A stretch of DNA of 16,140 nucleotides, taken from IMG/VR virus record IMGVR_UViG_640753025_000003. One strand, written 5' to 3'. The DNA comes from a virus (lineage: Duplodnaviria; Heunggongvirae; Uroviricota; Caudoviricetes). The notes below the pieces were generated by a model, which made no database searches, was not told where the DNA came from, and saw only the letters and a program-made list of their open reading frames with translations. Shown in pieces: positions 7,988 through 11,010 of this stretch (position 1 is its first letter; each line of letters begins with the position of its first letter). The position numbers were made by a program, and so were the translations under genes.

Positions 7988-10633
7988 TCAGCTGATACTG
8001 ATACCTGCTGTGGATTTCTTCATCACCACAACCAGCAAATCACTGATACTGGCTGTGGGATACCAGTCATTTACCAGCCACGCTGATACCGAAAACTCCA
8101 GCGTCATGTGACCGCGACCAGCAGGCATATCAATAACACCTGTATAAACCAGCGTATTATCCAGCGCGGTACGGTTATAAATTTCAGCACCGTTTTTCTT
8201 CACTATCAGGCGGCATGACGAATAAATATCGTTATTCTCCCGCTCATGTTTAGCGCCACGAAACGCCACCGTGGGAATAACAATCTGCCGGTCAAACGGC
8301 TGATCGTCATAAACCCTGACGGTAATGGTCCCTGATGGCCACCGCTCCGGTGCACGGGAGTCCCGGGGGAAAGCTTTGCCCACTGTTTTAACGAGATCGC
8401 CTTCAATCTGGTTCGCAGACAGTTTTCCCAGAACCCGACAGTTTTCATTTATCGTGACATTGTTGAGCGTCCCGGCGTTCGCATTCACACTGCCACTGAT
8501 ATCCGCATTTTTCGCCGTCAGTCGCCCGTCCGGTGTAAGGGAAAATGCAGGAGGATTACCGCCGCTGGTAATGGTGGGAGCCGTCAGGCGTTTCAGGAAC
8601 ACGTCGTTCATGAATATCTGATCACCCTGACCAACAAACATCGGCTTTGTGTTGCCATTCGCAGGATTAATCATCGCAATCCTGTCTGCCGCCAGCAGCA
8701 CCTGACTCTGCATTCCTGCTGGCGTATTCTCAATACCGGCACCGATACCCGCAATATAAAGGCGTCCGTCCTGCATCTGCTGCAGTTTCACGGCCCACAT
8801 GCTGTTCAGGTTATTATTTGTATCAACCTGAACCTTCTGTATCTGCTGGATCGCTGCACTCTGGTCTTCCAGTTTCTTATTGACGGTCTGTGTGATTTCA
8901 TTGCTGACATCCGTAATGGATGTCCTGATTTCAGCCAGGTCAGGCGCAAGCTGACCGTTATCAATCTGCGTCCACAGCTCCTGAGCCAGATGGGTTTTCC
9001 CTATCTCGCCTTTGAAAAAATCCAGATAGCCGGATGCGTCATCACTCGGCTGACCAACAGCCTCCACGAATGCCGATTTGCCAACGGTGTTCACACTGCG
9101 AACGTAAAAATAATAATTATGGCCCGGTTTGATATTGATACTGGCGGCTATCCAGTACAGCCCCGCGCCAAGGTAGCGGGCTGTGGTTTCAACCTGCCTG
9201 ATATCGGTAATCCGCGTTTCCGAGAACCAGAACTCAAACTGTACCGTCGGATCATAAACCGCAAGATGCGGCGTGGCAGTTATCTGAAAATAGCCCGGCG
9301 TCAGCTCAATCCGCGACGGTGCTACCGGTGCGGCAATCCGGAACGATACCGACGCCGGATCGCCCTGCTGTCCCCACGCATTTACCGCCCGGACTGTCAG
9401 CGTGTACCGTCCCAGCGCCAGTTGCGTGAAGCGGTATGTGGTTTCTGTCGTCCGGGCCGTGCTGACCAGCCGCTCACTGCCGTCGTCCGCTGCCACGGTC
9501 AGGCGAAGCATAAAGCTCACCCCCTTCACCACCTTCGGCGTGTCCCAGCGGGCCAGTACCTGATACTCCCCGCTGTCTGCGGTGACTTCGGCAGTCAGGT
9601 GCTGCACCGCTGGCGGCGTGACACCATTCACCGTGCCGCTCTGGTCGCCGTCAAAGTGCGCCCCGTTATCCACGATGGCCTCTTTTTCCGGCACATGCTG
9701 CACGGCGGTGATGGCATACGTGCCGTCGTCGTTCTCACGGATACTCACGCAGCGGAACAGTCGCTGGCGCAGCGTCGGCAGCTTCAGCCCCCATACGCTG
9801 TATTCAGCAACACCGTCAGGAACACGGCTCACTTTTACCTTCACGCCGTCGGTGACGGACTGAACCTCCACGCTGACCGGACTCCCCTGCCCGTCAACCA
9901 GGCTTATCAGCGTGGTGCCGGAAGATGGCAGCGTGATTTCACGGTCGAGCGTCAGCGTCCGGGTCTGGCTGTTTACCGCCAGCACGCGCCCGCCGGTGCT
10001 GATACCGGCATAGTCATCATCGCAGATTTCAATGACATCGCCCGGTACATGGCGAAGCCCTTCAGCACCCACGCTGAAATCCACGGTCTGCGTCTCCAGC
10101 AGTTCCGTTTTAATCAGCCACAGCCCGGCGCGGTGTGCCTGCCCCCGGCAGGTACAGCCAAAGGCATCCATCTTCGTGACATTACGACCGTAACGGGCAA
10201 TGGCCTGCGTATCTTCAACAAGCTCTGTCGCCGTCTCCCAGCCGTTGTTCGGGTCAATCCAGTTCACCTCAACGGCATTATGGCGGTCCTTCAGGGCGCT
10301 GAAGCTGTAGCGGAACGGCGCGCCATCATCCGGCATCACCACATTACTGCGGTTATAGGTCCACACCTTATCTGATGGTCGGTCCTGCACGAACGTCAGC
10401 GTCTGCCCGTTCCATACCGGCATACAGCGCATCGCCGAGCAGAAATCACTGAGCACATCCCACGCCTTACGCTGCGTGGTCAGGTAGGCATTACAGGTGA
10501 TGCGCGGCTCCGTGCCGCCAAAACCGTCCGGCACCGACTGGTCGCAGTACTGGCCGATGACATACAGCGCCCATTTATCCACATCTGCCGCACCAAGACG
10601 TTTCCCCATGCCGTAGCGCGGATGGGTCAGCAT
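7988..10633 (-). pseudogene. J: Tail tip / host specificity protein J, C-terminal 881 codons only (N-terminal quarter or so missing)
   Basis: Long blocks match lambda J as recalled ([87 protein letters not shown]). Lambda J is about 1130 aa. The ORF begins at an internal ATG (10633) directly abutting a terminase fragment. The C-terminal 250 or so residues diverge from lambda. Confidence 0.85.
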
Positions 10634-11010
10634 ACCGCCGCACTGCTTCTGAACGTTCTGTCGAGGCGCTTTTTTGAATGCTCGCGGGCCTTATCTTCGG
10701 TCATCTGCACAACGAGCATGTCCGAAGGATCGCAAACGATGGTATAGACAATCCATCCATCGATCAGACCAATGGTCTTCCCTGTTCGCGCAGGACCAAC
10801 AAAAATCACCGCATCGTATTCACGCGATGCCAGGCAGTTCATGGGCTCAATGATGTAGGGTGTCAGTTCAGGATCCCATGGCACCGAGTTACCAGCCCCC
10901 TTGGGAACACGCATGAATTTTTTAACAGCCTCCGAAATCGGCATGCGACGTGGTGGGGAAAATCCTGCCGATATGTCCCTTCCCAAATTTCGGGCTGATG
11001 AAAAACCCAT
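10627..11010 (-). pseudogene. Terminase large subunit (gpA family), N-terminal 127-codon fragment with Walker A motif
   Basis: Strong RBS (AGGAGG, spacing 5) overlapping the stop of the upstream small-subunit gene. Walker A VGPARTGKT; layout resembles the lambda gpA N-terminus. The frame stops after about 120 residues where the sequence becomes J-derived; full terminases are about 640 aa. Confidence 0.75.

Follow-up and report, generated by a model that had tools for sequence, protein, structure and literature searches.

The window analysed here, the 16,140-nt stretch of DNA in the record IMGVR_UViG_640753025_000003, to whose positions all coordinates refer, matches the chromosome of the commensal strain Escherichia coli HS with 100% identity. 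It contains genes of a cryptic lambdoid prophage of the Qin locus, inserted in ydfJ between rspB' and ydfJ', with the same flanks as Qin of E. coli K-12. In this prophage, the beginning of the gene terL, encoding the large subunit of terminase, is joined to the middle of the gene J, encoding the tip attachment protein of the tail. The junction is very probably the scar of an internal deletion of the prophage, with one illegitimate recombination event as the likeliest cause and with inert remnants on both sides.

Structure of the terL–J junction

The junction was examined by similarity searches and by comparison with two fuller prophages occupying the same site, HUE1 and EC0880B. The features involved are as follows:

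10633..10634: deletion junction with a 2-nt microhomology ‘TA’ (terL nt 377–378 = J nt 834–835), located by comparison of HS with both HUE1 breakpoints and by the boundaries of BLAST segments
10627..11010, minus strand: terL', stump of the GpA-type terminase large subunit, 127 amino acids, PGAP pseudogene ‘missing C-terminus’
7988..10633, minus strand: J', remnant of the tip attachment protein J, 881 amino acids, PGAP pseudogene ‘missing N-terminus’
11015..11020, minus strand: Shine–Dalgarno sequence AGGAGG, 4 nt before the terL' ATG (11008–11010), read from the sequence
11019..11558, minus strand: terS, intact gene of the small terminase of the DUF1441 family, 179 amino acids (Pfam DUF1441, E = 1.7e-44), directly upstream of the terL stump

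On the minus strand, terL-derived DNA ends at position 10633 and J-derived DNA begins at position 10634. A 901-nt query over the junction, compared by BLAST with a phage collection, gave matches split at 10633/10634. Down to 10633, the query matched the terminase genes of phages cdtI and Tritos, for both the small and the large subunit, with 99.8% identity; from 10634, the match was to lambda J, beginning at lambda nt 16338, with about 98% identity over the first 435 nt past the breakpoint. No phage record in the collection spanned both halves of this query.

In a three-way alignment, the HS junction was set beside both corresponding sites in the fuller HUE1 prophage. With the breakpoint marked by a slash, the terL parent in HUE1 reads ...GCGGCGGTA/AAGAAA and the J parent ...TGGGATA/TGCTGACC, and the HS junction reads ...GCGGCGGTATGCTGACC. 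The crossover lies inside the dinucleotide ‘TA’, with terL nt 378 joined to J nt 834. Neither an insertion sequence (IS) nor an att sequence was found at the junction by annotation and by the three-way comparison with HUE1, with which the comparison with EC0880B was concordant. A second copy of the 600-nt junction segment (terL nt 78–378, J nt 834–1133) was not found in HS at the megablast level.

The open reading frames (ORFs) of 127 and 881 amino acids overlap by 7 nt, ATGCTGA. Both were called pseudogenes by PGAP in RefSeq, and the boundaries of the two pseudogenes meet exactly at the junction. A sequence-only reading of the window had proposed that the N-terminus of the terminase large subunit is joined here to the middle of J, and both BLAST and the alignments with HUE1 and EC0880B place the breakpoint at this point. 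The two ORFs, their overlap, the ribosome-binding site and the Walker A motif are all located where that reading had placed them. The 7-nt stretch 10627–10633 stands as an overlap of ORFs, but not as homology shared by the two parents, which is limited to the 2 nt ‘TA’.

Residues 1–126 of the terL' product are identical (126/126) to the start of a 699-amino-acid terminase. Residue 127 is a foreign Cys, the codon of which is followed by TGA, a stop within J-derived DNA. The stump thus represents the N-terminal 18% of the GpA terminase, and the 3' 82% of terL is gone. The product covers only positions 2–87 of 247 in the Pfam profile GpA_ATPase, and the ATPase domain is therefore incomplete, with the Walker A motif GPARTGKT kept at residues 72–79. 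The GpA_nuclease domain, found at residues 325–643 of the 699-amino-acid relative, in which the ATPase domain is complete, is absent from the 127-amino-acid ORF. Both the Pfam match and the identity to the longer protein agree with its description as a terminase fragment carrying a ribosome-binding site and a Walker A motif, and not a complete small protein unrelated to terminases.

The product of J' is identical at 877 of 881 positions to residues 279–1159 of a J protein of 1159 amino acids, so that about three-quarters of J are represented; it is not a full-length member of a shorter J-like family. The ORF starts at the native internal Met279 of J. The domain Phage-tail_3, two Ig domains, the tail-tip fibre domain and the C-terminal receptor-binding domain are kept (Pfam, E from 1e-30 to 1e-43). 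The N-terminal 278 amino acids are absent; in the full-length relative, which aligns end to end with solved structures of lambda gpJ, for example 8iyk, the domain FNIII-A_GpJ occupies residues 86–207.

HS and EC0880B share the same terS product, WP_001389340.1, which shows 99% identity to the small terminase region of cdtI and Tritos. DUF1441 proteins are the small terminases of lambdoid phages of the cdtI and Stx types. In HUE1, cdtI and Tritos, terS and terL' are 99–100% identical to those of HS. The linear records of cdtI and Tritos start at about position 11742 of the window (minus strand), upstream of terS. Since these records begin there, the cohesive-end (cos) region is probably retained beside the intact terS.

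The lost block and the distribution of the junction

Relative to HUE1, located at the same rspB–ydfJ site, the deletion comprises 14,878 bp, including 15 complete genes and parts of terL and J. Genes for packaging and head formation are represented in the lost block by the rest of terL, a small ORF, the portal gene, a gene for a fusion of ClpP protease and major capsid protein, and two head-completion genes. Genes for tail formation are represented by four tail genes, U- and V-like genes included, G, T, the gene of the tape measure protein, M, L, K and I, followed by the first 278 codons of J. On the terL side, HUE1 and HS agree completely (100% identity) as far as the breakpoint; on the J side, similarity resumes 14,878 bp later with 95.5% identity. 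Between EC0880B and HS, identity is 99.7% over the gapless 10,634 nt that extend from the J breakpoint through ydfJ', and 96% on the terL side; in EC0880B, terL and J are full length.

Thus, unlike HS, both HUE1 and EC0880B retain a 14.9-kb morphogenesis block. The loss of the remaining terminase, of all head genes and of most tail genes, which had been proposed from the lambda gene order, was accordingly borne out by the presence of these genes at the same site in both relatives, and its expected size of about 15 kb is close to the 14,878 bp measured against HUE1. In its DUF1441 small terminase and its ClpP–capsid fusion, the module for packaging and head formation that was lost departs from the lambda type, but it is collinear with lambda, and therefore the estimate holds.

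Both relatives are themselves damaged. In HUE1, IS3 is present in terS, and internal stops are present in terL and in the gene of a K-like peptidase; in EC0880B, ISEc22 is present in the gene of the tape measure protein. Because the lesions differ, the Qin site holds a series of independently decaying variants.

In HS, the order at this locus is rspA, rspB' with IS1, prophage genes, ydfJ' and ydfI. The Qin backbone genes essQ, rrrQ, rzpQ, cspI, gnsB, pinQ, ydfK and ynfT are present in the same order as in K-12, while ydfR is truncated. At the left end of the element, IS1A truncates rspB (L001 4954–7210, outside the window) and replaces the whole early region, which in K-12 holds the integrase gene, dicA/B/C/F and relBE. 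In this way the HS prophage lost its early region as well, a second large loss independent of the terL–J deletion. No genes for integrase, repressor, replication, portal, capsid, tail tube or tape measure proteins are annotated at the HS locus. The sole mitomycin-inducible prophage of HS lies at another locus (PMC8008629). The claim that the prophage cannot package DNA or build virions agrees with the absence of essential morphogenesis genes at the locus and with its lack of induction by mitomycin.

The junction was found in 3 of 5,426 complete E. coli genomes, all three being assemblies of strain HS; either half was matched in 4,529 of these genomes, the median number of matching places in a genome being 3. 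The exact 127-amino-acid product, with its junction-specific Cys end, was found on 40 contigs from NCBI, ENA, JGI and Logan, and, in a gene-position index, in 51 blocks, including human-gut metagenome assemblies and the isolate assembly GCA_902848205.1. Ten contigs were fetched, and all ten contain the same junction, with 99.64–100% identity to HS: three (L006, L009 and L010) are 100% identical, five are 99.8–99.98% identical, contig L005 is 99.64% identical, and contig L007 has no substitutions outside an N-gap. Because the ten contigs share the junction at such identity, the scar is genuine, confined to a narrow lineage and young in evolutionary terms. In the JGI contig L007 (3300028986; 6378–9032), J' is split into ORFs of 224 and 627 amino acids; further decay was considered as the cause and rejected, the split being due to a run of N in the scaffold.

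Contig L005 (ENA ERZ1741987), representing a second strain, contains the same terL'/J' junction and differs from HS by three tight patches of single-nucleotide polymorphisms (SNPs):

9761–10376, in J': 18 SNPs
7336–7540, in lom: 9 SNPs
6603–6717, in the side tail fibre gene stf: 13 SNPs

Over the 5.7 kb upstream of the patches, this contig has no substitutions and one single-base deletion. The alleles of the J' patch differ from those of HS and EC0880B at every site and from those of HUE1 at all but three, and 16 of the 18 SNPs are at third codon positions. Judging by this pattern, the patches look like the result of gene conversion after the deletion, from another, functional lambdoid allele of J, lom and stf, rather than of divergence in situ.

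Origin of the junction and state of the remnants

According to the proposed mechanism, one homology-independent, illegitimate recombination inside the prophage would have joined terL to J across ‘TA’, removing in one step the 3' part of terL, the head and tail genes and J codons 1–278. Such recombination is likely since only 2 nt are common to the two parents and the junction contains neither IS nor att. The genes J', lom and that of the tail fibre would still be open because the deletion is recent and because of their position at the lom/pinQ end of the element. The role of the remnants would be passive, as a source of J, lom and stf homology able to exchange sequence with other lambdoid phages. 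We infer a single event rather than several. Deletion mediated by an insertion sequence was considered and rejected, no IS being present at or beside the junction.

Several points weigh against this interpretation. No single complete genome with a match of at least 99.7% on both sides was found. The immediate ancestor of the HS prophage would have been a mosaic, which was not observed, because HUE1 is closest on the terL side only and EC0880B on the J side only. The 2-nt microhomology is no more than expected by chance and therefore points to no particular enzymatic route, be it slippage, end joining or an event mediated by gyrase. The same final scar would also result from several deletions in series. 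Finally, some translation of J' by termination–reinitiation at ATGCTGA is possible, judging from the arrangement of the two ORFs.

Stepwise erosion, by successive deletions or by deletion and gene conversion, with the junction recording the last event only, is an unlikely origin. It is in line with the independent damage elsewhere in the HS element (IS1 at rspB and the early region, the truncated ydfR and a remnant of the tail-fibre assembly gene) and with the other independent lesions of HUE1 and EC0880B. However, no intermediate was found, as every place with both halves in the 5,426 complete genomes carries the same junction and belongs to HS; both flanks are collinear with the relatives up to the breakpoint, and one event suffices. 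Still less probable is ectopic illegitimate recombination between two lambdoid prophages, with terL contributed by one and J by the other. Most E. coli genomes do hold several lambdoid prophages, as the median of 3 matching places indicates, and the terL side has its best relative in HUE1, the J side in EC0880B, but this difference in identity is explained by ordinary lambdoid mosaicism. Recombination of this kind would invert or delete chromosomal DNA, and none is missing: the flanks rspA/rspB–gnsB–terS and lom–stf–pinQ–ydfK–ydfJ' are ordered and oriented as in HUE1, EC0880B and Qin of K-12. Since the chromosomal flanks are undisturbed, an origin from two prophages is hardly credible. Mis-joining of two prophage regions during assembly, for which only the general risk of mis-assembly of repetitive prophage DNA can be cited, has a negligible probability and is excluded because independent assemblies share the junction: it is identical in three independent complete HS assemblies and in independent assemblies from ENA, JGI, Logan and NCBI, including contigs of 85 and 136 kb.

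As to the remnants left by the deletion, we infer that both terL' and J' are non-functional, because the terL stump has the P-loop only, while J' is devoid of the N-terminal part belonging to the tail-tip hub and of all assembly partners. The N-terminal part of J sits in the tail-tip hub. The observation that the C-terminal part of J, lom and the tail fibre gene remain as open frames was correct. Since the deletion lineage shows almost no divergence, the open J', lom and stf are not evidence of function and probably reflect the recent deletion rather than retained function.

In J', 7 nt differences between HS and EC0880B were found, 3 synonymous and 4 non-synonymous. The sole clearly HS-derived change is Ser440Cys (AGC to TGC; position 10150, J' codon 162), at a residue that is Ser in 13 of the 13 other J proteins compared. 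This substitution is compatible with relaxed constraint, although a single site proves nothing, and 7 differences, one of them HS-derived, are too few for a test of relaxed versus purifying selection on J'. An ORF of 461 amino acids is located antisense within J' (8990–10375, plus strand) and is unannotated in all records examined; it is presumably spurious, arising from biased codon usage in J'.

A functional rearrangement, in which terL' and J' form a translationally coupled pair and the truncated J protein with its receptor-binding domain is expressed and helps the host, for instance by blocking a receptor in the manner of StfE2, is very unlikely. The terL' ribosome-binding site is strong, the ATG of J' is a native Met codon overlapping the terL' stop, all C-terminal J domains are intact, and a precedent exists in a protein derived from a cryptic-prophage tail fibre that blocks adsorption of T2 (PMC12529663). 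However, no Shine–Dalgarno sequence precedes the J' ATG in the junction sequence, and the arrangement of stop and start is a by-product of J's own sequence. A promoter scan of positions 7200–13000 yielded 6 sites against 6.9 expected by chance, none on the minus strand near the junction, and thus gave no evidence of a new promoter made by the fusion. No export route would be predicted for J', the lineage is too young for an open frame to signal selection, and the one HS-specific change replaces Ser with Cys at the invariant site mentioned above. It is just as improbable that the HS lineage has retained J' as a block against lambdoid phages with the same receptor, or that J' is under selection as a host-range cassette available to incoming phages.

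Neighbouring genes and comparison with known systems

Between the junction and the prophage boundary, the window contains the following genes:

7321..7920, minus strand: lom, intact gene of an outer-membrane beta-barrel protein of the Ail/Lom family, 199 amino acids (Pfam Ail_Lom, E = 3e-127)
3480..7256, minus strand: intact gene of the side tail fibre, 1258 amino acids (Pfam phage_tail_N and a C-terminal Peptidase_S74 chaperone domain)
3306..3431, minus strand: remnant of the tail-fibre assembly gene tfa, 126 nt, PGAP pseudogene
2618..3208, plus strand: serine invertase gene at the right end of the prophage, annotated as pinQ (Pfam Resolvase and HTH_7)
1..1284, minus strand: ydfJ', host gene of a transporter of the major facilitator superfamily, cut by the Qin-site prophage and marking its boundary (Pfam; annotation of HS and K-12)

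The product of lom, WP_001233123.1, is the same in HS and EC0880B, and the gene is flanked by terminator-like hairpins at 7969–7950 and 7294–7273. Considering what is known of lambda lom, it would be the gene likeliest to be expressed in this part of the element. The side tail fibre gene is of equal length in EC0880B, which also has the same PinQ protein and the same 126-nt tfa remnant as HS; the loss of tfa therefore predates the terL–J deletion. As the 1258-amino-acid fibre ends in the self-chaperone Peptidase_S74, it would need no tfa. A search for inverted repeats of Pin crossover sites at 2300–7400, around pinQ, the tfa remnant and stf, gave only weak pairs of 14–24 nt with 71–93% identity and no convincing invertible segment.

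Rfam and tRNA scans of the window detected only the cspA thermoregulator, and no tRNA genes. This known element is located at the cold-shock gene cspI (13398–13814, minus strand; 109.8 bits, with a gathering score of 78).

Among known cases, Qin of K-12 MG1655, with its nohA/stfQ junction, comes closest. It occupies the same ydfJ'/rspB site, the whole head–tail block is likewise missing, and a packaging gene directly abuts a tail-fibre or tail gene, as in HS. The two elements share essQ, rrrQ, rzpQ, cspI, ynfQ, ynfN and gnsB, followed by pinQ, ydfK and ynfT. In K-12, a small terminase gene of the Nu1 type, nohA, abuts the truncated side tail fibre gene stfQ, and neither J nor lom is present, whereas HS contains the DUF1441 small terminase gene, the GpA-type terL stump, three-quarters of J, an intact lom and a fibre gene for 1258 amino acids. 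The early region, including dicA/B/C/F, relBE and intQ', is kept in K-12, while IS1 is found in its place in HS. As both the breakpoints and the packaging modules differ, the deletions in HS and in Qin of K-12 are independent.

A defunct prophage of E. coli B REL606 contains a gene derived from J, ECB_00512, comparable to J' of HS. This relict gene was a recombination donor for lambda J, contributing an adaptive segment with a gain in fitness for the phage (bioRxiv 10.1101/2020.11.02.365361), and experiments have demonstrated that lambda recombines with the tail genes of two defective prophages, Qin and Rac (PMC3945230). The SNP patches of L005 suggest an exchange similar to that of ECB_00512, with the difference that the L005 remnant appears to be the recipient and not the donor. 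Another comparison concerns StfE2, recently reported as a cryptic-prophage tail-fibre chimera which is controlled by PinQ and protects the host by blocking T2 adsorption, PinQ of K-12 reportedly acting in trans on the e14 P segment (PMC12529663). StfE2, a product of Qin of K-12 and e14, is linked to pinQ, and a gene of the same name is located about 4 kb from J' in HS. StfE2 is generated when the e14 P segment is inverted site-specifically, whereas J' of HS arose by deletion, and nothing links J' to that mechanism. StfE2 shows that such remnants can be co-opted, but nothing at the HS locus points in this direction.

The deletion represents ordinary prophage decay, and is already present in public annotation, RefSeq marking both genes as truncated. 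Nothing in it is surprising to a specialist, and its importance beyond book-keeping is small. It documents, with breakpoints defined to the nucleotide, the loss of virion genes by a cryptic prophage in a commensal that is widely used as a reference strain, and shows that the Qin site contains independently decayed variants in HS and K-12. In gut metagenomes, the junction may help to mark the lineage of HS-like strains, and the patches that appear to have been exchanged in L005 would add a natural example of a J/lom/stf remnant swapping sequence with lambdoid elements.

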